Source: a virus
Lineage: Duplodnaviria; Heunggongvirae; Uroviricota; Caudoviricetes
IMG/VR virus record: IMGVR_UViG_2660238524_000004
Length of the DNA stretch: 34,352 bases
Strand: one strand, 5' to 3'
This document shows positions 2,533-27,620 of this stretch, piece after piece. Within the stretch, counting starts at the first letter, position 1; each line of letters opens with the position of its first letter. The notes beneath the pieces are model-generated. The model was given only the letters and a program-made list of their open reading frames with translations. It was not told where the DNA came from and searched no databases. The position numbers were made by a program, and so were the translations under genes.

Positions 2533-2562
2533 GTAATTAACCAGAGTTTTCAACGCACTTAA

Positions 2563-2820: not shown

Positions 2821-3122
2821 TGTCCTGTTCTCGTTCAATTGTATTACTGAATAACGCCTTAAAAATCGCCGTTATGGAAAATGGCGATTTGTCTCTTATT
2901 CAACTTGGTCTTGATAAAGAAAAGCGCGACATAACTGAATCTGTTATCGCGATTTATCAGAGCGAATTAAACCTCCTGTCTGATGTGATCAATTTACTTG
3001 TGAAACGCGCTGTATTTCACAAGCAAATTTCCTCAGTGGATGAACTGACAAAATTAACGACAGAACTCGCCAGCTATTGCGCTGATGAATTTAAAAAACT
3101 TAACGACAAAAGGAGCTGGTAA
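2817..3122 (+). CDS. Hypothetical early protein (101 aa), P2 orf81 position
   Basis: ORF with ATGA-type overlap to neighbours in the early operon. Confidence 0.45.
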
Positions 3123-3346
3123 TGCCGGACAACGTAGATTTTATTCAGGAACAACAGGCTGAATTACTGGAGCGTCAGATTAACGCGGCAAGGGTAAAAC
3201 ATTGCGGTGCTTCTGCGCTGGTTTGCGAAGAGTGTGACGCGCCAATACCTGCTGCCCGTCGTGCGGCTTATCCGTCAGCCACGCGTTGTGTTTCCTGTCA
3301 GTCAGTCTTTGAAGCAAAAAACAAACATTACCGGAGAACGGCATGA
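3122..3346 (+). CDS. TraR/DksA-family C4 zinc-finger protein (74 aa), P2 orf82 position
   Basis: Four cysteines in CxxC...CxxC arrangement (CEECDAPIPAARRAAYPSATRCVSC) after a short helical N-terminus, typical of phage TraR-like proteins. Confidence 0.7.
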   Translation: MPDNVDFIQEQQAELLERQINAARVKHCGASALVCEECDAPIPAARRAAYPSATRCVSCQSVFEAKNKHYRRTA

Positions 3347-3618
3347 GTATTCGTATCGAAATTGACGAACGTTATGTCGTTACCAGTGACAGCTTTCAGT
3401 TTATTCTCCACGAGAAAAAGAGAGCGGAAAGCGGTAAAAATGCCGGTCAGGAATGGCTGGCGGTGGTTGGTTATTACCCGAAATTAAGCCAGCTCGTTTC
3501 CGGCCTGATGCATCACGATATTCTGACCGGAAGCGCAAAATCTTTTGCCGATTTAAACGCGCAGGTTGAGCAACTCAGCAAGCGTTGTTCAGAGGCTTTT
3601 GGCTCACATGGCCGTTAA
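3343..3618 (+). CDS. Hypothetical early protein (91 aa), P2 orf83 position
   Basis: ORF overlapping upstream stop and the start of gene A. Confidence 0.5.
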   Translation: MSIRIEIDERYVVTSDSFQFILHEKKRAESGKNAGQEWLAVVGYYPKLSQLVSGLMHHDILTGSAKSFADLNAQVEQLSKRCSEAFGSHGR

Positions 3619-5893
3619 AGCCTCAGGGCGTTTTGTCCCTCCGTCAGCATTTGCTGCAGGCACCGGTAAGGCGTTTACTGGTGCTTATGCATGGAACGCG
3701 CCACGCGAGGCTGTCGGGCGCGAAAGACCTCTTACACGTGACGAGATGCGTCAGGTGCAAGGTGTTTTATCCACGATTAACCGCCTGCCTTACTTTTTGC
3801 GCTCGCTGTTTACTTCACGCTATGACTACATCCGGCGCAATAAAAGCCCGGTGCACGGGTTTTATTTCCTCACATCCACTTTTCAGCGTCGTTTATGGCC
3901 GCGCATTGAGCGTGTGAATCAGCGCCATGAAATGAACACCGACGCGTCGTTGCTGTTTCTGGCAGAGCGTGACCACTATGCGCGCCTGCCGGGAATGAAT
4001 GACAAGGAGCTGAAAAAGTTTGCTGCCCGTATCTCATCGCAGCTTTTCATGATGTATGAGGAACTCAGCGATGCCTGGGTGGATGCGCATGGCGAAAAAG
4101 AATCGCTGTTTACGGATGAGGCGCAGGCTCACCTCTATGGTCATGTTGCTGGCGCTGCACGTGCTTTCAATATTTCCCCGCTCTACTGGAAAAAATACCG
4201 TAAAGGGCAGATGACCACGAGGCAGGCATATTCTGCCATTGCCCGCCTGTTTAACGATGAGTGGTGGACTCATCAGCTTAAAGGCCAGCGTATGCGCTGG
4301 CATGAGGCGTTACTGATTGCTGTCGGGGAGGTGAATAAAGACCGTTCTCCTTATGCCAGTAAACATGCCATTCGTGATGTGCGTGCACGCCGCCAGGCAA
4401 ATCTGGAATTTCTTAAATCGTGTGACCTTGAAAACAGGGAAACCGGCGAGCGCATCGACCTTATCAGTAAGGTGATGGGCAGTATTTCTAATCCTGAAAT
4501 TCGCCGGATGGAGCTGATGAACACCATTGCCGGTATTGAGCGTTACGCCGCCGCAGAGGGTGATGTGGGGATGTTTATCACGCTGACCACGCCGTCAAAG
4601 TATCACCCGACACGTCAGGTCGGAAAAGGCGAAAGTAAAACCGTCCAGCTTAATCACGGCTGGAATGATGAGGCATTTAATCCAAAGGATGCGCAGCGTT
4701 ATCTCTGCCGTATCTGGAGCCTGATGCGCACGGCATTCAAGGATAATGATTTACAGGCCTACGGTTTGCGTGTTGTTGAACCACACCACGACGGAACGCC
4801 GCACTGGCATATGATGCTTTTTTGTAATCCACGCCAGCGTAACCAGATTATTGAAATCATGCGTCGCTATGCGCTCAAAGAGGATGGCGACGAAAGAGGA
4901 GCCGCGCGAAACCGTTTTCAGGCAAAACACCTTAACCGGGGCGGTGCTGCGGGATATATCGCGAAATACATCTCAAAAAACATCGACGGCTATGCACTGG
5001 ATGGTCAGCTCGATAATGATACCGGTAGGCCGCTGAAAGACACAGCTGCTGCTGTTACCGCATGGGCGTCAACGTGGCGCATTCCGCAATTTAAAACGGT
5101 TGGTCTGCCGACAATGGGGGCTTACCGTGAACTACGCAAATTGCCTCGCGGCGTCAGCATTGCTGATGAGTTTGACGAGCGCGTCGAGGCTGCACGCGCC
5201 GCTGCAGACAGTGGTGATTTTGCGTTGTATATCAGCGCGCAGGGCGGGGCAAATGTCCCGCGCGATTGCCAGACTGTCAGGGTCGCCCGTAGCCCGTCGG
5301 ATGACGTTAACGAGTACGAGGAAGAAGTCGAGAGAGTGGTCGGCATTTACGCGCCGCATCTCGGCGCGCGTCATATTCATATCACCAGAACGACGGACTG
5401 GCGCATTGTTCCGAAAGTGCCGGTCGTTGAGCCTTTGACTTTAAAAAGCGGCATCGCCGCGCCTCGGAGTCCTGTCAATAACTGTGGAAAGCTCACCGGT
5501 GGTGATACTTCGTTACCGGCTCCCACACCTTCTGAGCACGCCGCAGCCGTGCTTAATCTGGTTGATGACGGAGTTATTGAATGGAATGAACCGGAGGTCG
5601 TGAGGGCGCTCAGGGGCGCATTAAAACACGACCTGCGAACGCCAAACCGTCAGCAGAGAAACGGAAGCCCGTTAAAACTACATGAAATTGCACCATCGGC
5701 CAGACTGACCCGGTCGGAAAGAATGCAAATTACCCGTATCCGCGTTGACCTTGCTCAGAACTGTATCAGGCCGCAGCGATGGGAGTTTGAGGCGCTGGCG
5801 CGTGGCGCGACCGTAAATTATGACGGAAAAAAATTCACGTATCCGGTCGCTGATGAGTGGCCGGGATTCTCAACAGTAATGGAGTGGAAATGA
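3608..5893 (+). CDS. A: Rolling-circle replication initiator endonuclease, P2 gpA (about 761 aa)
   Basis: ORF track gives 3566..5893; N-terminus from the ATG at 3608 (MAVKASGRFVPPSAF...) and most of the protein match my recollection of P2 A; HUH-type motif region (PHWHMMLF) and paired active-site tyrosines (YIAKYISK) present. Confidence 0.9.
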   Translation: MAVKASGRFVPPSAFAAGTGKAFTGAYAWNAPREAVGRERPLTRDEMRQVQGVLSTINRLPYFLRSLFTSRYDYIRRNKSPVHGFYFLTSTFQRRLWPRIERVNQRHEMNTDASLLFLAERDHYARLPGMNDKELKKFAARISSQLFMMYEELSDAWVDAHGEKESLFTDEAQAHLYGHVAGAARAFNISPLYWKKYRKGQMTTRQAYSAIARLFNDEWWTHQLKGQRMRWHEALLIAVGEVNKDRSPYASKHAIRDVRARRQANLEFLKSCDLENRETGERIDLISKVMGSISNPEIRRMELMNTIAGIERYAAAEGDVGMFITLTTPSKYHPTRQVGKGESKTVQLNHGWNDEAFNPKDAQRYLCRIWSLMRTAFKDNDLQAYGLRVVEPHHDGTPHWHMMLFCNPRQRNQIIEIMRRYALKEDGDERGAARNRFQAKHLNRGGAAGYIAKYISKNIDGYALDGQLDNDTGRPLKDTAAAVTAWASTWRIPQFKTVGLPTMGAYRELRKLPRGVSIADEFDERVEAARAAADSGDFALYISAQGGANVPRDCQTVRVARSPSDDVNEYEEEVERVVGIYAPHLGARHIHITRTTDWRIVPKVPVVEPLTLKSGIAAPRSPVNNCGKLTGGDTSLPAPTPSEHAAAVLNLVDDGVIEWNEPEVVRALRGALKHDLRTPNRQQRNGSPLKLHEIAPSARLTRSERMQITRIRVDLAQNCIRPQRWEFEALARGATVNYDGKKFTYPVADEWPGFSTVMEWK

Positions 5894-6345
5894 TGGCAAA
5901 AATTCACGAGGTAAAGCTGCACGCCAAATATTTTGACCTTGTGCTGGAAGGAAAGAAACGCGCAGAGTTTCGGAAAAATGACCGTAATTATGAGCGCGGG
6001 GACACGTTGATTTTGCATGAATGGGTACAGGGTGTGTATACGGGGCGAAAGGTTGAAGCCCGGATAACAGATGTTACTGACCTGTCAGACTGGCTGGAAG
6101 ATTATGTCTTGCTAAGTATTGAGCTGCTTAATACAGGCGCATATGAGATTGTGAACTGGAAAGAACTTAGTGAGCGTGGTCTGGTATTCAGAATTAATCA
6201 TGAAATTATGCATCAGCTCGGCCTTTCTGTTATGTATGAACCAGAGACGGGGATGTCTGGCGGGGCAATGGTTGCCACGGATGGAGCATGGAACTATTCA
6301 GATGAACAGATGGAGCGTGCACAGCAAAACGGGTGGCTTGGATAA
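5890..6345 (+). CDS. ASCH/EVE-like small protein (about 151 aa), P2 orf91 position
   Basis: ATG overlapping gene A stop (ATGATG at 5890-5895); N-terminal beta-barrel-like segment (KIHEVKLHAKYFDLVLEGKKRAEFRKNDRNYERGDTLILHEW) resembles ASCH/DUF3850-type domains; fold assignment is an impression only. Confidence 0.55.
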   Translation: MMAKIHEVKLHAKYFDLVLEGKKRAEFRKNDRNYERGDTLILHEWVQGVYTGRKVEARITDVTDLSDWLEDYVLLSIELLNTGAYEIVNWKELSERGLVFRINHEIMHQLGLSVMYEPETGMSGGAMVATDGAWNYSDEQMERAQQNGWLG

Positions 6346-6551
6346 TGCACAGAATACCAGGCGAGATACCGCAACATAAAACTAAAAATATCAAGCTGAT
6401 GGCTATTGTTCACCGTCTACAGCAGATTATGGTTAACGAAAATCTGACGCCTGACGAGCTGGTCGGGTGTGCCGAAATAGTCCGGGATAATTACGGGCGG
6501 TTTAACCATATCGGTCAATCCAGAGTTATGCCACCACCACGCAGACGATAG
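6345..6551 (+). CDS. Small hypothetical protein (68 aa)
   Basis: ATG overlapping the orf91 stop (TAATG); no recognisable motif; could be spurious. Confidence 0.25.
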   Translation: MHRIPGEIPQHKTKNIKLMAIVHRLQQIMVNENLTPDELVGCAEIVRDNYGRFNHIGQSRVMPPPRRR

Positions 6552-6780
6552 AGAACGCCGCCAGTCGTGAAACTTGTTTTCAGGGCTGGCGGGGTTGAAC
6601 AACGAGCGAAGCGAGGCGTTAGTTGACAGTAATATTTTTACTGCGTTGGTGCTGGTTTTTGACGGTTGAAAGGAGTTAGCTCGGAGAGCTAAAGCTAACA
6701 ACTTACAAATATTCAAAAGTAAGCTTCCTGTTGCTAACATAAGGTCGATTTTTTATGTGGATGATGCAAAAAGGATAGCT

Positions 6781-7512
6781 ATGGATACTGTAATCGCTTT
6801 TCTATCACTCGCTTTTTTCGTTGCTTTTTTCATCGGGTTAATCAAACCATCACTGGTGCGGATGCCAAACCGTAAACGTGCAAGTGCGGTTTATCTCGGA
6901 GGAGGTTTTGTATTGAGCATAATTGGTTCAATACTCTATCCAACAGAAAAAAGCCAGCCAGTTGCTAAAACTGAAACATCAACCGTTGCAGAACACCAAG
7001 TCCAAAAAACATTCGAATATGGTGGAAAAACACTCAAGGAATATCGGAACGAGCCAAAGAAAACTCGACACGATATTGTAAATAGTTACATTGATTTTAA
7101 GGAAGTGCCAGTCACCGCATCAGATGCATTTTATGCCTGCATGAGTGAATATACTTTTACCAAAGATGATGAGTTGAAACTCGGTGATGTTCTTGGATGG
7201 TGCTTTAATGATTATGAAAAAGATCCGCAATCACTAAACAATAAAATCAACCTTGATACATTTCAGAGTAATTTTAGTGGTTGGGATGGTTCTTATCGAC
7301 CATTGGAAAAGTTAATTAAAGAGAATATGAACGATGATTCATCTTATAAACATGTGTCAACAGTGTATCATTTAATCCTGAATAAAGACCCTCACGCCAT
7401 TGTGAAAACCACATTTCGCGGTACTAATGCCTATGGTGGTGTCGTGAAGCAAACAATAGCAGCGCGTGTTAATGTGAAAACGGGTGAAATAGTTTCGATA
7501 CTAAATAATTGA
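6781..7512 (+). CDS. Cargo gene 1 at the tin/old-equivalent locus: predicted 2-TM membrane protein with about 180-aa soluble C-terminal domain, unknown function
   Basis: ORF track 6757..7512 (GTG); ATG at 6781 has AGGA 5 nt upstream and is preferred; two hydrophobic segments (VIAFLSLAFFVAFFIGLI and AVYLGGGFVLSIIGSILY); AT-rich relative to backbone; sits where P2 carries tin. Confidence 0.65.
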   Translation: MDTVIAFLSLAFFVAFFIGLIKPSLVRMPNRKRASAVYLGGGFVLSIIGSILYPTEKSQPVAKTETSTVAEHQVQKTFEYGGKTLKEYRNEPKKTRHDIVNSYIDFKEVPVTASDAFYACMSEYTFTKDDELKLGDVLGWCFNDYEKDPQSLNNKINLDTFQSNFSGWDGSYRPLEKLIKENMNDDSSYKHVSTVYHLILNKDPHAIVKTTFRGTNAYGGVVKQTIAARVNVKTGEIVSILNN

Positions 7513-7716
7513 TGGTGATGCCACCGATACTGAAGTTTGATATTGTGTCGGTGGCATTGAAAGATGATCTTAAAGCATGTCTATTTTTTTGTTTTACATG
7601 ATTTTTTTTTGATGTGTTGTGCGTTGTTTTGTTTGTAATTAGAGTGCTTGATGATTTAAATTTCGTTTAAATGTTGTGTGAAAATATTGTGATTTTCTAT
7701 ATCAAGGATTTGTTTC

Positions 7717-8415
7717 ATGAAGTATTGTGGGATAGCTTTAATAATATGTCTTTGCTTGTTTATGTTCGCATTTGGTTTTGTGTTGGGTGGAGTTCAATGG
7801 GCATGGGGCGAGAGTGAAAATAATAGCAAGGTCGCATTTTGGACAATGCTAGGAGGGTGGGTGTCAGGATTGGCTACTCTCGCGGCTGTGGGGGTTTCAT
7901 TATTTACAAGTTATTATGCGATGATTTCAGGCAAAGAGAAAGTTGACGTTGTTTTTGCGCCTATATATACGACCTCTACGGCAAAAAAAGCAGATAAGCT
8001 TTCATTGCAAGATTTGGCTAATATCAAAGTGACAAATTTACACGGTGTGAAGTGTACTATTGTTAATGTTTATATGAAGTTTAGTGATGTTAAGGAACCA
8101 TTAAAGATTAATAACCTTAAACAGGGAGGTAAGCCAATACCTTATACGCTATGTAATATAAGCGATATGTGGGAGTTTGCATTTGGGATGGAGTCAAACC
8201 CTAGATTGAGATTTCTATTGTCAGGGTTGAAATATGAAGGTCGACCATCCTTTAAAAAAGGGCATTTCATCATTGAAACAGCAATGAAACAATACAAGTT
8301 AAAGATGCGGAAAGACTTTCTCTCAATATTACAGAGTGAGTATCAAAGCATAGAGGAAGAATCTAAACGTAACTCAGTTAAATCAGGGTGGTCACGGTAT
8401 AAAAAACTGAATTAA
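7717..8415 (+). CDS. Cargo gene 2 at the tin/old-equivalent locus: predicted 2-TM membrane protein (232 aa) with about 150-aa soluble C-terminal domain, unknown function
   Basis: Clean ORF with its own AT-rich upstream region; hydrophobic segments IALIICLCLFMFAFGFVLGGV and WTMLGGWVSGLATLAAVGVSLF; strongly AT-rich codon usage; occupies the position of P2 old but is far too short to be an Old ATPase-nuclease (586 aa). Confidence 0.7.
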   Translation: MKYCGIALIICLCLFMFAFGFVLGGVQWAWGESENNSKVAFWTMLGGWVSGLATLAAVGVSLFTSYYAMISGKEKVDVVFAPIYTTSTAKKADKLSLQDLANIKVTNLHGVKCTIVNVYMKFSDVKEPLKINNLKQGGKPIPYTLCNISDMWEFAFGMESNPRLRFLLSGLKYEGRPSFKKGHFIIETAMKQYKLKMRKDFLSILQSEYQSIEEESKRNSVKSGWSRYKKLN

Positions 8416-8745: not shown

Positions 8746-9780
8746 TCAGCCGTTGTCAGTGTCCAGTGAGTAGTTTTTAAAGCGGATGACCTCCTGACCG
8801 AGCCAGCCGTTTATCTCGCGGATCCTGTCCTGTAGCGGGATAAGCTCATTGCGGACAAAGACCTTTGCCACTTTCTCAATATCACCCAGCGACCCGACGT
8901 TCTCCGGCTTGCCGCCCATCAACTGAAAGGGGATGCGGTGCGCGTCCAGCAGGTCAGCGGCGCTGGCTTTTTTGATATTAAAAAAATCGTCCTTCGTTGC
9001 CACTTCACTGAGCGGGATAATTTTAATGCCGTCGGCTTTTCCCTGTGGGGCGTAGAGAAACAGGTTTTTAAAGTTGTTGCGGCCTTTCGACTTCACCATG
9101 TTTTCGCGAAGCATTTCGATATCGTTGCGATCCTGCACGGCATCGGTGACGTACATGATATATCCGGCATGAGCGCCGTTTTCGTAATACTTGCGGCGGA
9201 ACAGCGTGGCCGACTCATTCAGCCAGGCAGAGTTAAGGGCGCTGAGATATTCCGGCAGGCCGTACAGCTCCTGATTAATATCCGGCTCCAGCAGGTGAAA
9301 CACGGAGCCGGGCGTGAAAGCTGTCGGCTCGTTGAAGGACGGCACCCACCAGTAAACATCCTCCTCCACCCCACGGCGGGTATATTTTGCCGGTGAGGTT
9401 TCCAGTCTGATGACCTTACCGGTAGTGCTGTAACGCTTTTCCAGAAACGCATTACCGAACACCAGAAAATCCAGCACAAAGCGGCTGAAATCCTGCTGGG
9501 AAAGCCACGGGTGCGGGATAAACGTTGAGGCCAGAATATTACGTTTGACGTAAATCGGTGAGCTGTGATGCACGGCAGCACGCAGGCTTTTTGCCAGACC
9601 GGTAAAGCTGACCGGTGGCTCATACCATCTGCCGTTACTGATGCACTCAACGTAATCCAGAATGTCACGGCGGTCGAGTACCGGCACCGGCTCACCAAAG
9701 GTGAATGCCGCCATTTTCGGGGCGCTGGCGGTCATTGTTTTTGCCGCAGGTTGCGGTGTTTTCCCTTTTTTCTTGCTCAT
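8746..9780 (-). CDS. Q: Portal protein, P2 gpQ (344 aa)
   Basis: Size and sequence consistent with P2 Q; adjacent to and co-oriented with terminase large subunit; start overlaps the P stop. Confidence 0.9.
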   Translation of the reverse strand: MSKKKGKTPQPAAKTMTASAPKMAAFTFGEPVPVLDRRDILDYVECISNGRWYEPPVSFTGLAKSLRAAVHHSSPIYVKRNILASTFIPHPWLSQQDFSRFVLDFLVFGNAFLEKRYSTTGKVIRLETSPAKYTRRGVEEDVYWWVPSFNEPTAFTPGSVFHLLEPDINQELYGLPEYLSALNSAWLNESATLFRRKYYENGAHAGYIMYVTDAVQDRNDIEMLRENMVKSKGRNNFKNLFLYAPQGKADGIKIIPLSEVATKDDFFNIKKASAADLLDAHRIPFQLMGGKPENVGSLGDIEKVAKVFVRNELIPLQDRIREINGWLGQEVIRFKNYSLDTDNG

Positions 9781-11552
9781 CAGTAAAACTCCAGAATGGT
9801 GGATGTCAGCGGGGTGCTGATACCGGCGGTGAGTGGCTCATTTAACAGGGCGTGCATGGTCGCCCAGGCGAGGTCGGCATGGCTGGCTTCCTCGCTGCGG
9901 CTGGCCTCATAGGTGGCGCTGCGTCCGCTGCTGGTCATGGTCTTGCGGATAGCCATGAACGAGCTGGTGATGTCGGTGGCGCTGACGTCATATTCCAGAC
10001 AGCCACGGCGGATAACGTCTTTTGCCTTGAGCACCATTGCGGTTTTCATTTCCGGCGTGTAGCGGATATCGCGCGCGGCGGGATAGAACGAGCGCACGAG
10101 CTGGAACACGCCGACACCGAGGCCGGTGGCATCAATTCCGATGTATTCAACGTTGTATTTTTCGGTGAGTTTGCGGATGGATTCCGCCTGTGTGGCAAAG
10201 TCCATGCCTTTCCACTGGTGACGCTCAAGTATTCTGAATTTGCCACCGGCCACCACCGGCGGTGCCAGTACCACGCATCCGGCGCTGTCGCCACGGTGTG
10301 ACGGGTCGTAACCAATCCAGACCGGGCGGGAGCCGAACGGATTAGCGGCAAACGGCGCATAGTCTTCCCATTCTTCCAGCGTGTCGACCATGCAGCGTTG
10401 CAGCTCCTCGAACGGGAACACCGACGCCTTGTCGTCAACAAATTCACACATGAACAGGTTTTTAAAATCGTCGGCGCTGTTTTCACGTTTGAGCTGCTCA
10501 ATGTCGAACAGCGTGCAGCCGCCTTTCAGGGCGTCCTCAATGGTGACAATCTGCCGCCACTGGCCGTCCGCACAGAGAAGCCCACCGGCAAGGGCGTTAT
10601 GACTGACGTCGATTTCCACGCGTTCAGCGGCGCTGGCGCGTCCCCGGTTAAACAGTTCACCCGACCAGAACGGGTAGGCGTCGTGCGCCAGCGTGGACGG
10701 GGTGGAGAAATAGGTCGAACGCAGGTGACTCTGTGAGGCCATACCTGATGCCACCTTACGCAGTACCTGAAAATTCGGGATCCAGAAAATCTCATCGACG
10801 TACAGGTCGCCGTTATGGCTCTGTGCGGTGTTGGAGTTGGTGCCGAGAAAAATCAGTTTTGCGCCGTTATTGCCCAGGACAATCGGGTCACCGGTCAGGT
10901 CAACGTCAACCAGCCGGGCAAAGGCGATGATGTATTCACGGAACACATACGCCTGCGTTTTACTGGCCGACAGAAAAATCTGGTTATGGCCGGTTTTCAG
11001 GGCGCGCAGCAGCGCCTCGCGGGAAAAATAAAACGTCGCGCCAATCTGACGGGATTTCAGGATATCGCGGATGCGGTGCTCAAGCCCGGCGCGATACCAG
11101 TGCAACTGATATTCGAAAGACTGCTCAAAGAAAATCTGCTCCAGCTTTTCGATGGCCTCGTCACTGAAAAAATTCTTTTTCGGTTTGCGACGCCCGCCTT
11201 TGTTGCGGTTAGCGACGTTCGGATTAAGGTCTGCCTCGTTGCCGGTCTGGCTGTAGCGGTTGACCCGTGCCAGTCGTTCAATCTGGCGTCCCAGCAGGTC
11301 AATTTCCTTGAAGTCACTGCCGGTTTTCTGCGGTTTGATGATGAGCTGGGTCAGCCGCGCTTCCAGACTCATTTCGACACGGCTGATGGGGGCAACGCTG
11401 TCCCAGCCGTCGCGCTGTTTCCAGCTCTGCACCGTCGGGCGTTTCATCTGCAACATGGCGGCAATCTGCGGCACGGAAAACCCCTGCCAGTACAGCAGCG
11501 CCGCCTGACGACGCGGGTCGTGTAAAAGAGTGGTGTCTGTGGTGATGGTCAT
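9780..11552 (-). CDS. P: Terminase large subunit (ATPase/nuclease), P2 gpP (590 aa)
   Basis: ORF track 9780..11582; start taken at the Met giving MTITTDTT... (590 aa, matching P2 P length). Confidence 0.9.
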   Translation of the reverse strand: MTITTDTTLLHDPRRQAALLYWQGFSVPQIAAMLQMKRPTVQSWKQRDGWDSVAPISRVEMSLEARLTQLIIKPQKTGSDFKEIDLLGRQIERLARVNRYSQTGNEADLNPNVANRNKGGRRKPKKNFFSDEAIEKLEQIFFEQSFEYQLHWYRAGLEHRIRDILKSRQIGATFYFSREALLRALKTGHNQIFLSASKTQAYVFREYIIAFARLVDVDLTGDPIVLGNNGAKLIFLGTNSNTAQSHNGDLYVDEIFWIPNFQVLRKVASGMASQSHLRSTYFSTPSTLAHDAYPFWSGELFNRGRASAAERVEIDVSHNALAGGLLCADGQWRQIVTIEDALKGGCTLFDIEQLKRENSADDFKNLFMCEFVDDKASVFPFEELQRCMVDTLEEWEDYAPFAANPFGSRPVWIGYDPSHRGDSAGCVVLAPPVVAGGKFRILERHQWKGMDFATQAESIRKLTEKYNVEYIGIDATGLGVGVFQLVRSFYPAARDIRYTPEMKTAMVLKAKDVIRRGCLEYDVSATDITSSFMAIRKTMTSSGRSATYEASRSEEASHADLAWATMHALLNEPLTAGISTPLTSTILEFY

Positions 11553-17926: not shown

Positions 17927-17992
17927 TTGTGCCATTCCCGACACCTCATCGTCACATTGCCGCCGGTATGACCCGGCGGCATCCTTCCCGTT

Positions 17993-18634
17993 ATGAACAC
18001 TCTCGCAAATATTCAGGAACTCGCGCGCGCACTGCGCAATATGATTCGCACCGGCGTTATCGTCGAAACCGACCTTAACGCCGGTCGCTGCCGTGTGCAG
18101 ACCGGCGGCATGTGCTCCGACTGGCTTCAGTGGCTGACCCATCGCGCCGGTCGTTCGCGCACATGGTGGGCACCTTCCGTGGGGGAACAGGTGCTGATTC
18201 TGGCTGTGGGCGGTGAACTCGACACGGCGTTCGTTCTGCCGGGGATTTATTCAGGTGATAACCCCGCGCCGTCTGCGTCGTCTGATGCCCTGCATATCCA
18301 TTTCCCTGACGGGGCGGTGATTGAGTATGAACCTGAAACCAGTGCACTGACGGTAAGTGGAATTAAAACGGCCAGCGTGACGGCTTCTGATTCTGTTACT
18401 GCCACGGTGCCGGTGGTCACGGTGAAAGCATCAACCCGCGTCACCCTGGACACACCGGAGGTGGTCTGCACTAACAAGCTGATTACCGGCACGCTGGAAG
18501 TGCAGAAGGGCGGGACGATGCGCGGCAACATTGAACACACCGGCGGGAAATTCACGTCTAACGGCGTTCAGGTTGATGACCACGGTCACGGTGGTGTTAA
18601 GTCAGGAGACAACTGGACACAGGGGACAAAATGA
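17993..18634 (+). CDS. V: Baseplate central spike protein, P2 gpV (213 aa)
   Basis: Length and order as P2 V, first gene of the V-W-J-I-H-G late operon. Confidence 0.8.
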   Translation: MNTLANIQELARALRNMIRTGVIVETDLNAGRCRVQTGGMCSDWLQWLTHRAGRSRTWWAPSVGEQVLILAVGGELDTAFVLPGIYSGDNPAPSASSDALHIHFPDGAVIEYEPETSALTVSGIKTASVTASDSVTATVPVVTVKASTRVTLDTPEVVCTNKLITGTLEVQKGGTMRGNIEHTGGKFTSNGVQVDDHGHGGVKSGDNWTQGTK

Positions 18635-18978
18635 CAGCGCGTTATCTCGGAATGAATCACAGTGATGGCCTGACTGTCACTGACCTTGAGCATATCAGCC
18701 AGAGTATCGGCGATATCCTGCGCACACCGCTCGGCTCACGGGTGATGCGTCGTGATTACGGCTCGTTGCTGGCATCAATGATTGACCAGCCGCAGACCCC
18801 GGCGCTTGAGTTGCAGATTAAGGTCGCCTGTTACATGGCGGTGCTGAAATGGGAACCCCGCGTCACCCTGTCATCCGTCACCACGGCGCGCAGCTTTGAC
18901 GGGCGAATGACAGTTACGCTAACCGGCCAGCACAACGACACCGGCCAGCCACTTTCGTTAACCATCCCTGTGAGTTGA
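18631..18978 (+). CDS. W: Baseplate wedge protein, P2 gpW (115 aa)
   Basis: Length identical to P2 W; 4-nt overlap with V. Confidence 0.8.
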   Translation: MTARYLGMNHSDGLTVTDLEHISQSIGDILRTPLGSRVMRRDYGSLLASMIDQPQTPALELQIKVACYMAVLKWEPRVTLSSVTTARSFDGRMTVTLTGQHNDTGQPLSLTIPVS

Positions 18979-18982
18979 AACC

Positions 18983-19891
18983 ATGCCGATTATCGACCTG
19001 AACCAGCTACCCGCACCGGATGTGGTCGAGGAGCTGGACTTTGAAACCATTCTTGCCGAACGCAAGGCGACACTGATTTCCCTTTACCCGGAAGACCAGC
19101 AGGAGGCGGTCGCCCGTACCCTGACGCTGGAATCTGAGCCTCTCGTCAAACTGCTGGAGGAAAATGCTTATCGTGAGCTTATCTGGCGTCAGCGTGTGAA
19201 TGAGGCCGCACGGGCGGTGATGCTGGCCTGTGCCGCCGGTAATGACCTTGATGTGATTGGTGCCAATTACAACACCACGCGCCTGATTATCACCCCGGCA
19301 GATGATTCGACTATCCCGCCGACACCGGCAGTGATGGAGTCTGACACCGATTATCGTCTGCGTATTCAGCAGGCGTTTGAGGGCTTAAGCGTCGCCGGGT
19401 CGGTGGGTGCCTATCAGTATCATGGCCGCAGTGCCGACGGGCGTGTCGCGGATATCTCTGTCACCAGTCCGTCTCCGGCCTGCGTCACCATCTCTGTGCT
19501 GTCACGTGAAAATAACGGTGTCGCATCCGAAGACCTGCTGGCGGTGGTGCGTAACGCTCTTAATGGCGAGGACGTCAGGCCGGTGGCCGACCGCGTGACC
19601 GTGCAGTCTGCCGCCATCGTTGAATACCAGATAAACGCCACGCTTTACCTTTACCCTGGTCCCGAAAGCGAACCCATTCGCGCTGCTGCTGTGAAAAAAC
19701 TGGAAGCGTATATCACGACACAGCACCGGCTGGGGCGTGACATCCGTCTGTCTGCCATTTATGCCGCTTTGCATGTGGAAGGCGTGCAGCGTGTCGAACT
19801 GGCTGCACCGCTGGCCGACATCGTGCTCAACAATACGCAGGCGTCTTTCTGTACCGAATACCGCGTCGTGACCGGAGGCTCGGATGAGTGA
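18983..19891 (+). CDS. J: Baseplate protein, P2 gpJ (302 aa)
   Basis: Length identical to P2 J. Confidence 0.85.
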   Translation: MPIIDLNQLPAPDVVEELDFETILAERKATLISLYPEDQQEAVARTLTLESEPLVKLLEENAYRELIWRQRVNEAARAVMLACAAGNDLDVIGANYNTTRLIITPADDSTIPPTPAVMESDTDYRLRIQQAFEGLSVAGSVGAYQYHGRSADGRVADISVTSPSPACVTISVLSRENNGVASEDLLAVVRNALNGEDVRPVADRVTVQSAAIVEYQINATLYLYPGPESEPIRAAAVKKLEAYITTQHRLGRDIRLSAIYAALHVEGVQRVELAAPLADIVLNNTQASFCTEYRVVTGGSDE

Positions 19892-20414
19892 TTCGCGACT
19901 GCTGCCGACCGGCTCATCACCACTTGAGGTCGCCGCTGCAAAAGCCTGTGCGGAAATTGAAAAAACGCCGGTCAGTATTCGTGAGCTGTGGAACCCGGAT
20001 ACCTGTCCGGCAAATCTGCTGCCGTGGCTGGCGTGGGCGTTTTCGGTCGACAGGTGGGATGAAAAGTGGCCGGAAGCAACAAAACGCGCCGTTATCCGCG
20101 ATGCCTATTTCATCCACTGTCATAAAGGCACTATCGGCGCAATCCGGCGTGTGGTGGAGCCGCTCGGCTATCTCATTAACGTAAAGGAATGGTGGGAGAC
20201 AAACGACCCGGCCGGAACCTTTCGCCTTGATATCGGTGTGCTGGAAAGCGGCATCACAGAGGAGATGTATCTGGAAATGGAACGGCTGATTGCCGATGCC
20301 AAACCCGCAAGTCGCCACCTTATCGGTCTGAACATTATCCAGGACATTCCCGGCTATCTGTATACAGGCGGTGTGGTCTGTGATGGTGATGTTATTACTG
20401 TTTATCCCGGATAA
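19884..20414 (+). CDS. I: Baseplate protein, P2 gpI (176 aa)
   Basis: Length identical to P2 I; overlaps J stop. Confidence 0.8.
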   Translation: MSDSRLLPTGSSPLEVAAAKACAEIEKTPVSIRELWNPDTCPANLLPWLAWAFSVDRWDEKWPEATKRAVIRDAYFIHCHKGTIGAIRRVVEPLGYLINVKEWWETNDPAGTFRLDIGVLESGITEEMYLEMERLIADAKPASRHLIGLNIIQDIPGYLYTGGVVCDGDVITVYPG

Positions 20415-20424
20415 GTGAGAAACA

Positions 20425-23049
20425 ATGAGCACGAAATTTAAAACCGTTATCACTACTGCCGGAGCCGCGAAGCTGGCAGCCGCCACTGTTCCCGGCGGGA
20501 AAAAAGTAAACCTGTCTGCAATGGCTGTGGGGGACGGTAATGGCCAATTGCCGGTGCCGGATGCCGGTCAGACGAAACTGGTGCATGAAGTCTGGCGTCA
20601 CGCTCTGAATAAAGTCAGCGTGGATAATAAGAATAAAAACTATATCGTGGCTGAACTGGTTGTTCCGCCCGAAGTGGGCGGCTTCTGGATGCGTGAGCTT
20701 GGTCTGTATGATGATGCCGGAACACTGATTGCGGTATCCAACATGGCAGAAAGCTATAAGCCAGAACTGGCTGAAGGCTCCGGACGTGCGCAGACCTGCC
20801 GCATGGTTATTATTCTCAGCAACGTGGCGTCCGTTGAGCTGAGTATTGATGCCAGCACAGTGATGGCGACGCAGGATTACGTCGATGACAAAATCGCAGA
20901 GCATGAGCAGTCCCGCCGCCATCCTGACGCCACGCTGACAGAAAAAGGTTTTACTCAGTTAAGCAGTGCAACAAACAGCACCAGTGAAAAGCTGGCGGCA
21001 ACGCCAAAGGCAGTAAAAGCAGCCTATGACAATGCTGAGAAACGTCTGCAGAAAGACCAGAACGGTGGCGATATTCCAGATAAGGGCGCTTTTCTGGACA
21101 ATGTTGGCGTTACCAGCCTGACGTTTATGAAACACAATGGAATGATTCCAACCACTGACAATCTTGACTCCTATGGCCCAGAAGAAAAATATCTTGGAAC
21201 GTGGTCATGCCCGTCACAATCCACTGCAAAACCAGAGTCTGGTTACCCTGAAGATAAAGGCAATGGGGTTCTGGAAGTATTCAATGCTGGTCGCTTTCAC
21301 TGCACACAACGCTACACCACCCGAACCGGTAATATTTACATTCGGATGATTGATGCAGAATGGAACCCTGTCAGTCCTGTATGGAGTGCATGGAGAGTTA
21401 TTACAAGCGGGACTCGCCCATTAAGCACGTCAATTGACCTGAATTCTTTAGGTGGTGCGGAACACCTGGGAATATGGCGCAATAGCAGTACATCAATAGC
21501 CTCATTTGACCGTCATTTCCCGGAGGAAGGGAGTTTTGGGCAGGGTATTCTGGAAGTCTTTGAAGGAGGTCTGTATGGGAGGATGCAACGTTACACCACC
21601 CGTAGTGGGACTATGTACATTCGCGGACTGACTGCCTCATGGGATGCAGAAAATCCACAATGGGAGGACTGGATTGCTGTTGGGTATCAGTCCACGGGAT
21701 GGACTTATTCAGGGGATCTTGATGACCTTTTAAAGCCTGGTATTTATAGCGTTACGAAACAGGCCACAAATGCACCTGTCACCGACTCTAAAGATCTTGC
21801 TGTTGGCTCAATAGTTGAAGTGAAAAAACGTTGTGATATTGAATCGTATATCCAGACATACACGACTGTTTCAGCAACGGATGCCTATAAAAACCGGACA
21901 TTTCAGCGAACCCGCGCCAGCGGTGAAACTGACTGGGGGGAATGGGCGGAAGTATACAACTCAAAATCATTACTCACTAAATTAGGTGTCGGCGGTGTTA
22001 CCGACAGGTTATCCAGTCTGGACTGGCAGACCTACGACTTTATACCGGGCAGCATGATAACTGTCAGGCTTTCAGATATGACCAATATTCCCGATGGGAT
22101 GGAATGGGGCGTCATTGATACTAACCTGATAAATATCACTGTTGGCCCCAGTGAAGGCGGAGGTGTCGCCCGTTCAATGCAGGTATGGCGCAGCACTTCA
22201 AACAAAACCAACTATCGTTTTTTTACAGTCCGCTTATATGGCAATCCTGGGGAGCGTAGCTTCAATATTCGTCGGCTACCAATTATCGACGAAGCCCAGA
22301 CATGGGAGGCAAAACAGACATTCAGTGCAGGCCTTTCTGGTGAACTGTCCGGCAATGCGGCTACAGCAACAAAGCTGAAAACGGCAAGGACAATTAACGG
22401 CGTAAAATTTGACGGCTCGGCAAATATTGAAGCGTTTCCGCCTGGTGTTCCGCTGCCGTGGCCATCAGATACACCACCTGCAGGATATGCAATCATGCAG
22501 GGGCAGACGTTTGATAAGACTGCATATCCGAAACTGGCTATTGCCTATCCTTCTGGTGTTATTCCAGATATGCGCGGCTGGACAATCAAGGGCAAACCCG
22601 CCAGTGGGCGTGCCGTATTGTCACAGGAACAGGACGGGATTAAATCGCATACTCACAGTGCCAGTGCGTCAAATACGGATTTGGGAACGAAAACAACCAG
22701 TTCGTTTGATTACGGGACGAAGACAGTCAGTACGTTTAACTACGGAACAAAAACCACTAATACCACTGGTAACCATACACATACCATTTACAGAGGGAAT
22801 GCCAATACTAATGGTGAAACCGGTAAAACAGGCTTTGACAACCCATCGTTTAATGGCACATCAGGAGCTGCCGGGAATCATGCCCACACGGTAGATATTG
22901 GCGCACATAATCATACGGTTGGTATTGGTGCACATTCACACACGGTTGCTATTGGCTCACACGGGCACTCTATTACCGTTAATGCTACAGGTAATACAGA
23001 AAACACCGTCAAAAACATCGCATTCAACTATATTGTGAGGCTTGCATAA
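20425..23049 (+). CDS. H: Tail fibre protein H (874 aa), mosaic: P2 H-like N-terminal anchor plus lambda Stf-like C-terminal receptor-binding region with HxH repeats
   Basis: First about 200 aa match my recollection of P2 H ([19 protein letters not shown]...); C-terminus ends ...[14 protein letters not shown] as in lambda Stf; His-rich GxHxH repeats ([33 protein letters not shown]). Confidence 0.85.
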
Positions 23050-23417
23050 TGGCTTTCAGAATGAGTGCAGAAGCACAAACTATCCGCGTTTTCAATTTAC
23101 TTGATGGAACCAATGAATTTATTGGCGAAAGTGATGCATATATTCCACCGTATACTGGCCTGCCTGCAAACAGTACAGATATTGCACCACCTGATATTCC
23201 TGCTGGTTATGCAGCCGTTTTCAATGCAGATGAAATGAAATGGGAGTTGATGGAAGATCATCGCGGAAAGACTGTCTACGAAACGAAAACGGGAGCAGCC
23301 ATTTATATTTCTGAACTTGGCGCATTACCTCCAGACGTGACAGCCATTTCCCCGGATGGGGATTATCAGAAATGGAACGGAAATGCGTGGGTGAATGATG
23401 AGTGCGTATTACCGTGA
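23049..23417 (+). pseudogene. tfa: Tail fibre assembly chaperone (lambda Tfa-like), N-terminal fragment truncated by IS insertion; last 15 nt, including the stop, come from the IS end
   Basis: N-terminus [51 protein letters not shown] closely resembles lambda Tfa; native reading frame ends at 23402 where the IS begins. Confidence 0.8.
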
Positions 23418-23487
23418 AGGAGATCGGTGAGTAACATCGATGGAGATCGGTTCGTGTCACTTTCACAGAACCGTTTTTAAATTACCT

Positions 23488-24237
23488 TCACTGATCTCCT
23501 TCGGTCAACGGAGATTGTATTTTCCGCATTGATTCTCCTTTAAGTTCGATCTTGATACTGCCATGAACCAGTCGATCTAGGATGGCATCCGCATGTGTGG
23601 AGTCTCCGATCATTTTGTACCAGTTTTCCACCGGCAACTGGCTCACTACGATGATTGAGCCTCGTTGGTACATCAGATCCACTATTTCCAGCAGGTCGCT
23701 ACGCTGTTCTGATGAGAGAGGTTCCAGCCCCCAGTCATCCAGAAGCAGCAGATCGCTATTATTCAGCCTGGTCAAAAGTTTGCTGTATCTTCCATCAGCA
23801 TGCCCCTGATAGCACTGTTCCATCAGCGCTTTAAGGCGATAATAGTAGACCTTGTATCCCTGTCGGCAGGCATTATGACCAAGTGCACATGCCAGGAACG
23901 TTTTACCGCTGCCGGTGGCCCCGGTCAGTAAAATATTTTGTTTCAGGGTTAACCAGTTTCCCTGACTGAGTGAACGGATGAGGGCCCTGTCCAGCCCTCT
24001 ATTGTTACGATAATCCAGCTTTGATAACTCAGCATTAAGTCTGAACCGTGCATGTTTGATCAGACGCTCTGCCTTCCTGTTTTCACGGCAGGTTAGTTCT
24101 TCTGCTGTCAGTAATGACAGGCGTTCTTCGAAGCCCAGCTCCTGGTATGTGCCCGGTTGAGCAAGTTGCTTTTTAAGCGCATCACGGAAGCCGGTGAGTT
24201 TAAGTGCGGTCAGTTGTTCGTAAAGATGATTCATCAT
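23488..24237 (-). CDS. istB: IS21-family helper ATPase IstB (249 aa)
   Basis: Walker A motif GATGSGKT and DnaA/DnaC-like AAA+ region; immediately downstream of istA. Confidence 0.9.
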   Translation of the reverse strand: MMNHLYEQLTALKLTGFRDALKKQLAQPGTYQELGFEERLSLLTAEELTCRENRKAERLIKHARFRLNAELSKLDYRNNRGLDRALIRSLSQGNWLTLKQNILLTGATGSGKTFLACALGHNACRQGYKVYYYRLKALMEQCYQGHADGRYSKLLTRLNNSDLLLLDDWGLEPLSSEQRSDLLEIVDLMYQRGSIIVVSQLPVENWYKMIGDSTHADAILDRLVHGSIKIELKGESMRKIQSPLTEGDQ

Positions 24238-24248
24238 TGGATCCCGTA

Positions 24249-25790
24249 TCAGTGGTAATACTCACTGCCGCGTACGTTTTCGTGTTCCATCGTGGATAAC
24301 AGATCTGGTTTTGGATCCTGAACAGGTTGTTTATCCAGACCTTTTTCCAGGATCGATTTAATACCTGACAGACGCCATACCTTTGTTTTCAGAGCTCTTG
24401 CACATGCTGCATTAAGTCTGGCTTTACTGTATTTTTTATGAAGGTTCAGGAGTCCAAGGCAGAAGCGATAGCTTTGTTCCGGATGTGGACGAGAGTTCAG
24501 TATATGAAGCACATAACTATGAGTTTCACTGCCTATGTGCCCCGCCCATTCCAGAAGACGCTCTGGCGTCCAGGTGGCATGCTGTCGATGAGCTTCAGGC
24601 ATGTGCTCGTTGCGGGTACTGTAGCCATAAGTACGCTTGCGCGGGTGCACAGCAACCTCCTGCCCCTGATTGAAGAGTCTTACCAGTTCTCCGGAGATCC
24701 ATGCTTCCAGTTGCTGGCCTAACAGCGAACATGGAACCGAGTAGTAATGTTTGTCGATTTCCACGTGGTAATCGGCATGAACTCTGACTTTCTTCACCAG
24801 GGTGTAACTGTAACTGGCTTCAGGAAGAGGCTTCAGTGCGGGTTTATCAAGCTGGATGAAGAGTTCTGCACGTGAATAACCCAACTTCTGCATTATTTTG
24901 TTATTCAGTCTTTCCAGCAACTCCCGAATGCGCTGATTAAGCGATGCAAGGCTGTAGAAGATCTCATGCCTGATTCGGGCCATGATCCAGCGTTCAACAA
25001 CCTGAACGCCAACTTCAGCTTTGGCTTTATCTTTCGGTTTACGTGGCCGCGCAGGCAAAACTGCGACATTATAATGCTCAAGCATCTGCTGGTAGGTAGG
25101 GTTAACGTCAGGATCATACTTACATGCCCTGGATGTGGCGCTTTTCAGATTGTCCGGAACAACAAGTTCAGGAACGCCACCCAACCACTGGAAGCAGCGA
25201 ACATGACTCATCACCCAGTCTTCAAGCTGCTGAGACCAGGTGGCCTCTGCCCATGTGTAACTTGATGCCCCGAGAACAGCTACGATGACCTGAGCAGTTC
25301 TTATTTCTCCGGTCTCAGGGTCGGTAACGCCAACGGTAGGTCCACAGTAATCAACGAAAAGTTTTTCGCCAGCTTTATGTACCTGACGCATTGATGGTGA
25401 AGTGGTTTTGAGCCATTCACGGTACATCCGGCAGTAATGGTTATAGCTGTAAAAACCGCCTGGATTACGCTCACAGTATTCTTCCCAGAGTAGCTGCAGC
25501 GTCACGCATTTATTACGCAGTTCCCGGTGTACTGTAGCCCAGTCAGGCAGAGAGTGCTTCTTCATCTTAACCTGGGTCTGAAGGAACGCATGTTTTAGTT
25601 TTGTATCATCCCATCCTGTAGGTAAGGGCCACTGCTTTATGCCAAGTTGAGCCGCCCGATTAGCATATCTGGATACAACGGAAGGGGAGATTGCAAGACT
25701 ACGACCAATTTGTCGATGGCTGAGTCCAACACCGTATTTAAGCCTAAGAATTTCTTTAAGTTTTCTCATAGAAATTGGAACTGTTGGCAT
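24249..25790 (-). CDS. istA: IS21-family transposase IstA (513 aa)
   Basis: N-terminal HTH, central DDE-type integrase core; followed by istB with a short spacer as in IS21-family elements. Confidence 0.9.
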   Translation of the reverse strand: MPTVPISMRKLKEILRLKYGVGLSHRQIGRSLAISPSVVSRYANRAAQLGIKQWPLPTGWDDTKLKHAFLQTQVKMKKHSLPDWATVHRELRNKCVTLQLLWEEYCERNPGGFYSYNHYCRMYREWLKTTSPSMRQVHKAGEKLFVDYCGPTVGVTDPETGEIRTAQVIVAVLGASSYTWAEATWSQQLEDWVMSHVRCFQWLGGVPELVVPDNLKSATSRACKYDPDVNPTYQQMLEHYNVAVLPARPRKPKDKAKAEVGVQVVERWIMARIRHEIFYSLASLNQRIRELLERLNNKIMQKLGYSRAELFIQLDKPALKPLPEASYSYTLVKKVRVHADYHVEIDKHYYSVPCSLLGQQLEAWISGELVRLFNQGQEVAVHPRKRTYGYSTRNEHMPEAHRQHATWTPERLLEWAGHIGSETHSYVLHILNSRPHPEQSYRFCLGLLNLHKKYSKARLNAACARALKTKVWRLSGIKSILEKGLDKQPVQDPKPDLLSTMEHENVRGSEYYH

Positions 25791-25983
25791 AGGTATCCTT
25801 TACCGGAATGGCAAAAGATACAGATCAACACACCTGTGAAGTTCCAATAACATTGATGGAGATCACTGAATAACAAAATGAGTCAAAAGTGATCTCCATC
25901 GATGTTATTCAGCGATCTGTTCAAATGTTATTACCCGATCTCGATGGAAGTTATTGAGTGATCTCCTTTCATGAAAATACGCA

Positions 25984-26213
25984 ATGAGAATGCAGAGCGT
26001 GATGCACTTGTCAGAGCGGCGGAGTCTCAGAAGAAAGAGCAGATTGCATATGCCGGTGAAATTATTGCCACGCTGCAGGATGCTGTCGATTTAGATATGG
26101 CTACCGAGGAAGAAAAGTTAAGTCTGACACACTGGAAAAAATACCGTGTGCTACTGAATCGCGTTCAGCCGGAAGATGCTCCGGATATAGAATGGCCGGA
26201 AATGCCGCGATAA
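25984..26213 (+). pseudogene. tfa: Tail fibre assembly chaperone (lambda Tfa-like), C-terminal fragment downstream of the IS
   Basis: Frame continuing from the target duplication encodes ...NAERDALVRAAESQKKEQIAYAGEIIATLQDAVDLDMATEEEKLSLTHWKKYRVLLNRVQPEDAPDIEWPEMPR, resembling the lambda Tfa C-terminus; joining 23049-23402 to 25989-26213 restores a 192-aa ORF. Confidence 0.8.
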
Positions 26214-26469
26214 ATTGTATTAGCTCGGATGTGAGTTTACACATCTATAGCACAGAGTAAAACCTAATCTGGCTGTCCGCTCTGTGCTAGGAGCGGACAT
26301 TACCAAGTAACATGCCTTAATCAAAAGGAAATGGTTAATATATGCCATCATTGTTTGAAAAATACGCAGTCATATATTGCTATGAACATTGTTGGTGCAT
26401 TAACTTGCTTAAGAAACTACAATTAAGCATCATAAAATACTCTTATGACTTTTAAGGCTCTACCGTATC

Positions 26470-26877
26470 ATGGCTAAGCGGATTCCTGGTGTTAGTAAAG
26501 AATGGTCTAACTATCTCCTTTGTTTATTATTACATATGTCTTTACCTCTCTTACCTTTGGGGTTCGAGACACTTGTGCGTTCCGATCACTTGCCATCAAT
26601 ACAAACATTAAACATTACAGCGGCGTTTTATGCGATCTCGATAGGGCTTTCTTCTAAGAACGTTGCTATGTTTGGTTTGGGTATATTCGTGAGCATTTGT
26701 TTCTCTGTTGTATTTGGGATTGTTTCTTCAAATCCTAATTCTGATCCTAATCTTAATTTTAATGATAACTTGTATTTTTATTCTCCAATTGCGTGTATTG
26801 TTGCTATATTTGTTATACATGCATGTGAACGATATAACAGGCATGTTGCTGATTGTACACCATTTTTTGAGTTTTAA
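26470..26877 (+). CDS. Cargo gene at the Z/fun-equivalent locus: small multi-pass membrane protein (up to 135 aa), unknown function
   Basis: AT-rich ORF with several hydrophobic segments (LLCLLLHMSLPLLPLGF, AAFYAISIGL, FGLGIFVSICFSVVFGIV, IACIVAIFVI); no clear RBS at the first ATG so the start is uncertain. Confidence 0.45.
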   Translation: MAKRIPGVSKEWSNYLLCLLLHMSLPLLPLGFETLVRSDHLPSIQTLNITAAFYAISIGLSSKNVAMFGLGIFVSICFSVVFGIVSSNPNSDPNLNFNDNLYFYSPIACIVAIFVIHACERYNRHVADCTPFFEF

Positions 26878-26886
26878 GGGGGTGCT

Positions 26887-27378
26887 ATGATTGATACAAT
26901 TATCCCAGTAATACTATCAATTCTCCCGGCAATACTATCTATATTTAGCTTAGTAGCTGTTTCTATAGGTGCATTAGTATCTATCAGGTCTGTTAAAAAA
27001 AGACGTGAAATAGAAGTTCAGCTTTTTAATGAGATAATAAATCAACAAATTAAACAAACTAAAAGCAACCGTAAAAAGGATCTTGAAAATAGTGTTAATG
27101 AAATAGAAAATGAACTCAAGAGAAGAGTTGATATTTTGAATAAAATGCAAAAAGATCTAGAAGCAGTTTCAGAGAACAAATACTATTTTGATAAAGCAAA
27201 ATATCTTCGAAATGTCAAGTATGGAGAGTATTTATTAGAGATAAATGAAGCTGTGAATAATATTGATAATAAAAACAAACACTTACTAAATAACGCTCTT
27301 AATCAAAGCTCTGAGATTGGAAAAGTAAGATATCTTGGAAGAATAACAAAGGAAGCACTGGAAAAAACAGTAGGCTGA
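26887..27378 (+). CDS. Cargo gene at the Z/fun-equivalent locus: single-TM protein with long K/E/N-rich coiled-coil-like domain (163 aa), unknown function
   Basis: RBS AAGGGGG 6 nt upstream of the ATG; N-terminal hydrophobic segment IIPVILSILPAILSIFSLVAVSIGALV then charged helical region; very AT-rich. Confidence 0.65.
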   Translation: MIDTIIPVILSILPAILSIFSLVAVSIGALVSIRSVKKRREIEVQLFNEIINQQIKQTKSNRKKDLENSVNEIENELKRRVDILNKMQKDLEAVSENKYYFDKAKYLRNVKYGEYLLEINEAVNNIDNKNKHLLNNALNQSSEIGKVRYLGRITKEALEKTVG

Positions 27379-27620
27379 TCATTTTTTCCGCTCGTAATAG
27401 ATAAACTCAAAGGTTCTTTTTGAGAGCCTTTGAGTTTCAATCTTACCAATATTACTCACCATTTCTTTAGCAGCAATTTGGGGACTATAACTTCTACTTC
27501 TTGCTGTGAGTTCAACCGATGGATACAACACATTGGCTAAAACGCCCTGTGGGTGATTCATAGTCTAGCGTTTGGACTCCGTAAATTCACAGTTGGAAAC
27601 TGAGCGAGTACAAATCAAGG

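Follow-up and report, generated by a model that had tools for sequence, protein, structure and literature searches.

The window, the whole stretch of 34,352 nt that was analysed, is a complete P2-like prophage and corresponds to the prophage form of Peduovirus P24A7b (NC_049390). It aligns to P24A7b in four blocks of 99.98%, 99.57%, 97.95% and 99.99% identity, with a sole large interruption at 23403-25983, where the window carries a copy of ISEc12 within tfa. Two further differences distinguish the genomes: a 786-nt ORF between S and V is missing from the window, and a patch over V-J is ~98% identical, against 99.6-99.98% elsewhere outside the IS. A literature search on P24A7b found nothing relevant, and PADLOC and Pfam gave no assignment for the low-GC cargo ORFs. 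As in P2, the genes are ordered I, H and fibre assembly gene, with gene I (Tail_P2_I, E = 1.7e-54) at 19884-20414, directly 5′ of the tail fibre gene H, and a tfa start at 23049. GC content is 0.56-0.58 across the baseplate genes and lower, 0.47-0.50, in distal H. The H product and its P24A7b counterpart (gp21) are both 874 aa long and 99.9% identical, with a single change (I309L), and the fibre is thus already known, having been deposited in a sequenced phage and annotated there as a tail fibre protein. The features of the locus are as follows.

20425-23049, + strand: tail fibre gene H, intact ORF, 874 aa
20425-21030, + strand: module 1 of H, P2-type N-terminal anchor, aa 1 to ~202/207 (Pfam, P2 H alignment, P2 DNA similarity)
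21031-22397, + strand: module 2 of H, L-413C-type shaft, aa ~203-658 (found in neither P2 H nor lambda Stf)
22345-22425, + strand: left junction in a conserved motif ending (T/K)IN(G/N)V(K/S)FDG, aa 641-667 (drop in L-413C identity)
22432-23049, + strand: module 3 of H, receptor-binding tip of T4 gp37/lambda Stf type, aa ~660/670-874 (2XGF, lambda orf-314, Collar)
22648-22656, 22774-22782, 22879-22887, 22906-22914, 22933-22941 and 22960-22968, + strand: six HxH motifs, starting at aa 742, 784, 819, 828, 837 and 846
22783-22878, + strand: hypervariable tip insert, aa 787-818, between the second and third HxH (gap in lambda DNA similarity at 22770-22878)
23049-23402, + strand: 5′ part of tfa, codons 1-118, identical to P24A7b (phrog_105 'tail fiber assembly', E = 3.2e-57)
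23403-25983, − strand: ISEc12 (IS21 family), 2,581 bp, with boundaries set by comparison with the uninterrupted tfa of P24A7b
23488-24237, − strand: istB, AAA+ helper (Pfam IstB_IS21, E = 2.2e-67)
24249-25790, − strand: istA, DDE transposase (Pfam rve and Mu-transpos_C_2)
25984-26213, + strand: 3′ part of tfa, codons 117-192, conserved C-terminal domain, identical to P24A7b

The N-terminal module of H contains Pfam Phage_tail_fib (PF12571) at aa 1-151 (E = 2.5e-57) and a Phage_fiber_2 repeat at aa 170-210 (E = 2.8e-21). Canonical P2 H (NC_001895, 669 aa) aligns to aa 1-207 only, at 83% identity, and DNA similarity to P2 (84%) stops at 21030. No significant alignment to canonical P2 H was found beyond residue 207, so that the two proteins have in common the N-terminal 207 aa and a gene position after I, whereas the remaining 667 residues of the fibre are unrelated to P2 H. 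The initial annotation had proposed a P2 H-like region of about 200 residues followed by a different and longer remainder, and both points agree with these alignments. Full colinearity with P2 was hinted at by a record named 'Peduovirus P2' (OU784746), which matches aa 1-675 at 73.6% identity; it is absent in canonical P2 H. Judging from its family, the segment up to residue ~207 would plug the fibre into the baseplate.

The closest relative of the shaft is gpH of Yersinia phage L-413C (913 aa), which is 96% identical to the fibre over aa 1 to ~658/675. L-413C gpH is described, in a passage of PMC7460101 that cites Garcia et al. 2008, as a mosaic in which precisely the N-terminal 207 residues are shared with P2 H, and the fibre analysed here has the same residue-207 junction followed by the same knob-bearing shaft. 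The two proteins part at the distal end, since the C-terminal ~240 aa of L-413C gpH resemble P2 H and go with a P2-type G, whereas a gp37/Stf-type tip and a Tfa-type chaperone are found here. The receptor of L-413C is the GlcNAc of the LPS core (PMC7460101).

Within the shaft, aa 240-327 and 333-418 form a clear tandem duplication (z = 29.6, Smith-Waterman with shuffling). The third and fourth shaft segments gave no supported sequence duplication in Smith-Waterman pairs (z < 2), and a BLASTP self-comparison of the shaft showed no internal repeat. The duplicated segments are predicted to be tandem pyocin-fibre-like knobs and aa ~423-512 a third, knob-like domain; shaft homologues in the database are named 'pyocin knob domain-containing protein'. 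No confident fold was obtained for aa 513-635 (pLDDT < 35 in an AF2 monomer model). Searches of the shaft against Pfam at E ≤ 10 gave no match, and those against PDB sequences gave only chance kinesin matches (E ~0.1). A sequence-level family match between the fibre and R-type pyocin fibres (PDB 6CL5, 6CL6, 6CU2) was likewise not detected, and the C-terminal foot of the pyocin fibres is different. Nearly identical in L-413C, this part of the protein (aa ~208-658) would constitute a shaft bearing three predicted pyocin-fibre-like knobs.

At the distal end, the T4 gp37 tip structure (PDB 2XGF) matches aa 655-874 (E = 3.7e-76), and the C-terminal part of lambda Stf, orf-314, can be aligned with aa 660-874 (E = 8e-98, 59% identity including a 41-aa gap). 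The fibre and lambda Stf have the same C-terminal ending, as initially proposed, and the last 11 residues are common to T4 gp37 as well. A Collar domain (PF07484) at aa 674-721 (E = 2.4e-10) is followed by stem strands with His boxes. Protein identity over the tip is about equal for T4 gp37 (66-68%) and lambda Stf (66-69%), and DNA similarity to lambda extends over 22432-22769 (78%) and 22879-23399 (73.5%); at only 73-78% DNA identity, lambda itself was not the donor of the tip. The homology to Stf covers its C-terminal ~215 aa, the rest being unrelated except for a 40-aa fibre repeat (orf-401, Phage_fiber_2). The setting of the tip also differs among the three phages: in T4 it follows gp36, and in lambda it belongs to a side fibre that is dispensable and binds OmpC (PMC12617516), whereas here it is joined to a P2-type fibre that is the only fibre of the phage.

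Composition alone would give 0.44 HxH motifs against the six present, a number that no shuffle out of 20,000 attained. The last four are exactly 9 aa apart, corresponding to a 27-nt period over 22885-22961 in Tandem Repeats Finder, and 12 of the 20 histidines of the fibre lie within aa 740-850. The HxH repeats noted earlier at 22780-22980 are present, with five of the six motifs in that interval and the sixth upstream. Two motifs precede the tip insert, on the outgoing strand, and four follow it on the returning strand; their columns are invariant across six fibres, and each motif has an HxH counterpart in both T4 gp37 and lambda Stf. T4 gp37 has seven iron sites, at each of which an HxH from three chains coordinates one iron (PMC6957217). 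By homology, the six motifs found here are predicted metal-coordinating sites of a trimeric needle: the collar would lead into a long β-strand needle, and each HxH would form one octahedral metal (iron) site in the trimer. With six HxH here compared with seven in T4 and eight in lambda, in which the tip insert is also ~41 aa longer, the geometry of the needle differs in detail.

The most variable part of the tip is the insert at aa 787-818. This segment of ~30 aa is unlike T4 and lambda, and the P2-like phage Chuche has an almost identical version; Chlobot and phiNP carry an unrelated sequence of the same length in its place, within a conserved flanking framework. Its position corresponds to that of the 'tip' subdomain (932-959) of T4 gp37, which is set between the stem halves and binds LPS and OmpC (PMC6957217). 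By analogy with T4, the insert is the predicted receptor-contacting end of the fibre. It is shorter than the T4 subdomain and unrelated to it in sequence; as the two cannot be aligned, the T4 residues that contact OmpC and LPS have no recognisable equivalents here. P2 binds the LPS core (PMC9594776), and a receptor different from this is plausible for the fibre described here. Because the insert resembles neither T4 nor lambda, homology does not identify the receptor, and this applies to OmpC also, which would be only a guess.

A long-held view of the adhesins of T-even phages is that His boxes act as recombination points on either side of specificity segments. The break in lambda DNA similarity exactly at the insert fits this view, and at a second level of exchange the insert alone is probably swapped between two His boxes. 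A more speculative extension, which we consider possible but doubtful, is that the shortened six-His-box needle with its Chuche-type cassette recognises a receptor that is neither the LPS core of P2 nor the OmpC/LPS-glucose of T4 and lambda, and that the inserts make up a family of equal-length, exchangeable receptor cassettes. If so, a catalogue of the inserts between the second and third His boxes could be drawn up and applied to the reprogramming of P2-type particles.

The chaperone gene is closely coupled to H, as the tfa start overlaps the H stop by one base (TAATG), an arrangement also found in lambda stf/tfa. The intact Tfa (P24A7b gp22, 192 aa) has 65% identity to lambda Tfa along its full length and 29% identity to T4 gp38, and it matches Mu Tfa in 5YVQ_B (E = 1.3e-9); an NCBIfam search with the fibre and Tfa gave no match. 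Similarity to P2 G is limited to the last 70 aa (44% identity), the N-terminal half being unrelated. The proposal that the chaperone is Tfa-like rather than G-like thus applies to its N-terminal, fibre-binding half and does not extend to the C-terminal domain, which is common to both proteins, P2 G belonging to the same Pfam family (Caudo_TAP). In the modular model, as outlined in the section of PMC9608196 that cites North et al. 2019, a variable N domain of Tfa attaches to the end of the fibre, and trimerisation is the task of a conserved C-terminal helical domain.

The limits of the exchanged block were located at the DNA level. At the left junction, identity to L-413C falls from 97% through 63% to 40% across 22314-22434: DNA identity is 92-100% up to ~22340 and is gone by 22400, and the proteins diverge after aa ~665. 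At the right junction, DNA similarity to the P2/L-413C backbone resumes at 26190, 24 nt before the tfa stop. The exchanged block therefore spans 21031-26189 relative to P2 and ~22398-26189 relative to L-413C, and the junctions at 21030, ~22397 and 26190 bear out the earlier suggestion that the distal end was exchanged by recombination. Lambda-like DNA extends unbroken from 22879 to 23399, past the H stop codon and as far as the IS edge. Together with the resumption of the backbone at the end of tfa, this indicates that tip and chaperone moved together; the tip and its cognate Tfa-type chaperone would have arrived as one recombination block. The N-terminal half of Tfa would be matched to the type of tip, and its conserved C-terminal helical domain would drive trimerisation.

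In the window, tfa is split after codon 118 by ISEc12, and no intact tfa ORF is present. The element has imperfect terminal inverted repeats, both ends of which begin TGCGTATT, and is flanked by a 5-bp target duplication (ATGAG) at 23398-23402 and 25984-25988; its removal in silico exactly restores the tfa of P24A7b. Matching genes carry the RefSeq label 'IS21-like element ISEc12 family', and 100% identical copies of ISEc12 occur elsewhere. The 5′ tfa ORF runs into the IS and ends at 23417 (118 codons plus 4 aa), while 3′ tfa forms part of an 80-aa ORF that starts at an in-frame ATG within the IS end (25971). Both halves of tfa are still open reading frames, and complementation by a second Tfa encoded elsewhere in the genome is conceivable. 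The two fragments cover positions 1-53 and 57-131 of the Caudo_TAP profile (PF02413; E = 7.7e-27 for the latter). The same IS insertion in other genomes was considered and ruled out, as the sites differ (one in H, one at tfa nt 66).

Fibres depend for their folding on chaperones of this kind, which include P2 G, lambda Tfa and T4 gp38. Because ISEc12 separates the fibre-binding half of tfa from its trimerisation half, this copy most likely cannot make functional fibres, and a prophage bearing it would in all likelihood be unable to fold fibres or produce adsorbing particles.

Taken together, these data argue that H very probably encodes the trimeric tail fibre of a Peduovirus prophage in which a P2-type anchor, an L-413C-type shaft and a gp37/Stf-type tip that arrived with its Tfa are combined, and in which tfa is broken by ISEc12. 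The initial annotation had described H as a P2/lambda mosaic ending in the lambda Stf C-terminus. Mosaicism involving a P2 anchor and an Stf-type tip is upheld, but the number of parents and the specific attribution to lambda are not. Direct joining of a P2 H head to lambda Stf and Tfa would account for the N terminus, which matches P2 H, and for the C terminus and chaperone, which match lambda. It is nevertheless highly improbable and already refuted by the alignments: the ~450 residues between (aa ~208-658) resemble neither parent but L-413C gpH (96% identity), lambda DNA identity is only 73-78% and breaks off at the tip insert, lambda is no closer than T4 gp37, and what lambda orf-401 has in common with the fibre is the 40-aa Phage_fiber_2 repeat only. 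A different question is whether the knob-bearing shaft, rather than the HxH tip, sets host range or adds a second receptor, in which case the tip swap would leave the primary receptor as in L-413C-type fibres. The strong conservation of the shaft with L-413C and its three predicted lectin-like knobs, which resemble those of pyocin fibres, point in this direction. The receptor contacts of T4 gp37 map to the distal tip subdomain, however (PMC6957217), variation among relatives is concentrated in the tip insert and not in the framework, and homologous shafts are joined to many different C-termini, so we consider a determining role for the shaft quite unlikely.

The fibre could also still be functional, if the tfa fragments acted in trans as a split chaperone or if the Tfa of another prophage complemented the defect. 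The state of the two fragments allows for this, as each is an open reading frame and the split falls roughly between the N- and C-terminal parts of the Caudo_TAP profile, and several Tfa genes are common in E. coli, with a median of 2 matching places per genome. Against it, the modular model (PMC9608196) calls for a single chain that carries both the fibre-binding and the trimerising domain, and Tfa N domains are fibre-specific; residual function is thus unlikely. Our preferred reading remains the three-module fibre with its chaperone gene disrupted.

The arrangement of shaft, tip and tfa was found in 20 of 5,426 complete E. coli genomes at a coverage of at least 80%, and two of these 20 genomes have it 100% identical and without the IS. 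The tip type is more widespread, with 629 phage records from P2-like, lambda-like, T4-like and other groups. That P2, lambda, Mu, P1 and T-even phages trade fibre modules has been recognised since the early 1990s and is textbook mosaicism, and the fibre accordingly carries little weight as a discovery. For annotation, the prophage copy should be flagged as probably fibre-defective through ISEc12. The natural fusion points are now mapped in a fibre that works in P24A7b, namely residue ~207, the left-junction motif, the His boxes and the last tfa codons. The mapping, useful for both annotation and engineering, also shows that the tip must travel with its own Tfa.

The window carries an identical 2,581-bp copy of the IS21-family element ISEc12 at one of three different sites in the tail fibre and fibre assembly genes (H-tfa) of P2-like E. 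coli prophages. Copies lie at the following positions, L006 and L007 being loci from other genomes:

23403-25983, window, ISEc12
2512-5092, L006, ISEc12
4817-7397, L007, ISEc12

In the window, the element interrupts tfa at codon 118 and is flanked by the target duplication ATGAG. In strain S3 it lies within H, ~387 nt into the gene (target duplication GTTAT), and about a dozen more genomes give an S3-like match pattern, apparently reflecting the same site, S3 alone having been inspected. In LS4 the element is found in reversed orientation at tfa nt 66 (target duplication ACCAATG), a site and orientation probably shared by CCUG 73778. Insertion at three H-tfa sites could represent repeated inactivation of the fibre module, or simply the encounter of an active insertion sequence with an abundant target.

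At the boundary between the P2-type N-terminal anchor and the shaft resembling that of Yersinia phage L-413C, positions 20994-21084 (aa ~190-220, where the Phage_fiber_2 repeat ends) share only 72-80% identity with L-413C, as opposed to 96-100% in the flanking stretch. At the protein level this patch is similar to the repeat of the Mu S fibre (8JU3/5YVQ, E from 1e-15 to 3e-17), suggesting a mini-exchange where the two modules meet. Upstream, the window at 17929-17992 lacks a ~0.9-kb segment, present at P24A7b 9368-10305, which in both P24A7b and P2 holds an orf30-like gene on the minus strand between S and V. Since mean identity to P24A7b is only 97.95% over block 17993-23402 but 99.8% over sub-block 19884-23402, the V-W-J genes contain, judging from these alignments, a separate recombination patch.

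Two low-GC regions were also delineated. The first (26305-27565, GC 0.32-0.38), a cargo segment flanked by tfa and by FI, the sheath gene, occupies the position of Z/fun in P2, which in P2-like phages is a hotspot for anti-phage genes. It contains two ORFs, neither assigned by Pfam or PADLOC:

26470-26877, plus strand, 135 aa, hydrophobic and membrane-like
26887-27378, plus strand, 163 aa, hydrophobic stretch at the N-terminus

The pair is also present in E. coli NZ_OZ039410, and the whole stretch is 99.99% identical in P24A7b, where the first ORF is annotated at only 69 aa. The second island (6417-8415, GC 0.36-0.40), which separates the replication gene A region from the portal gene, corresponds in position to the tin/old cargo locus in P2. 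Its three ORFs had no match in Pfam or PADLOC:

6417-6740, minus strand, 107 aa
6757-7512, plus strand, 251 aa
7717-8415, plus strand, 232 aa

The adjoining ORF 5857-6345 contains ASCH/DUF3850 and DUF7415 domains.

H proteins that align colinearly with aa 1-675 of the fibre encoded here (~73% identity) were found in OU784746 / NC_070906 (“Peduovirus P2”, 31,490 bp) and in several Yersinia pestis P2-like phages. H of canonical P2 (NC_001895), unlike that of OU784746 / NC_070906, shows no such colinearity. The database name “P2” is therefore no guarantee of a canonical H.
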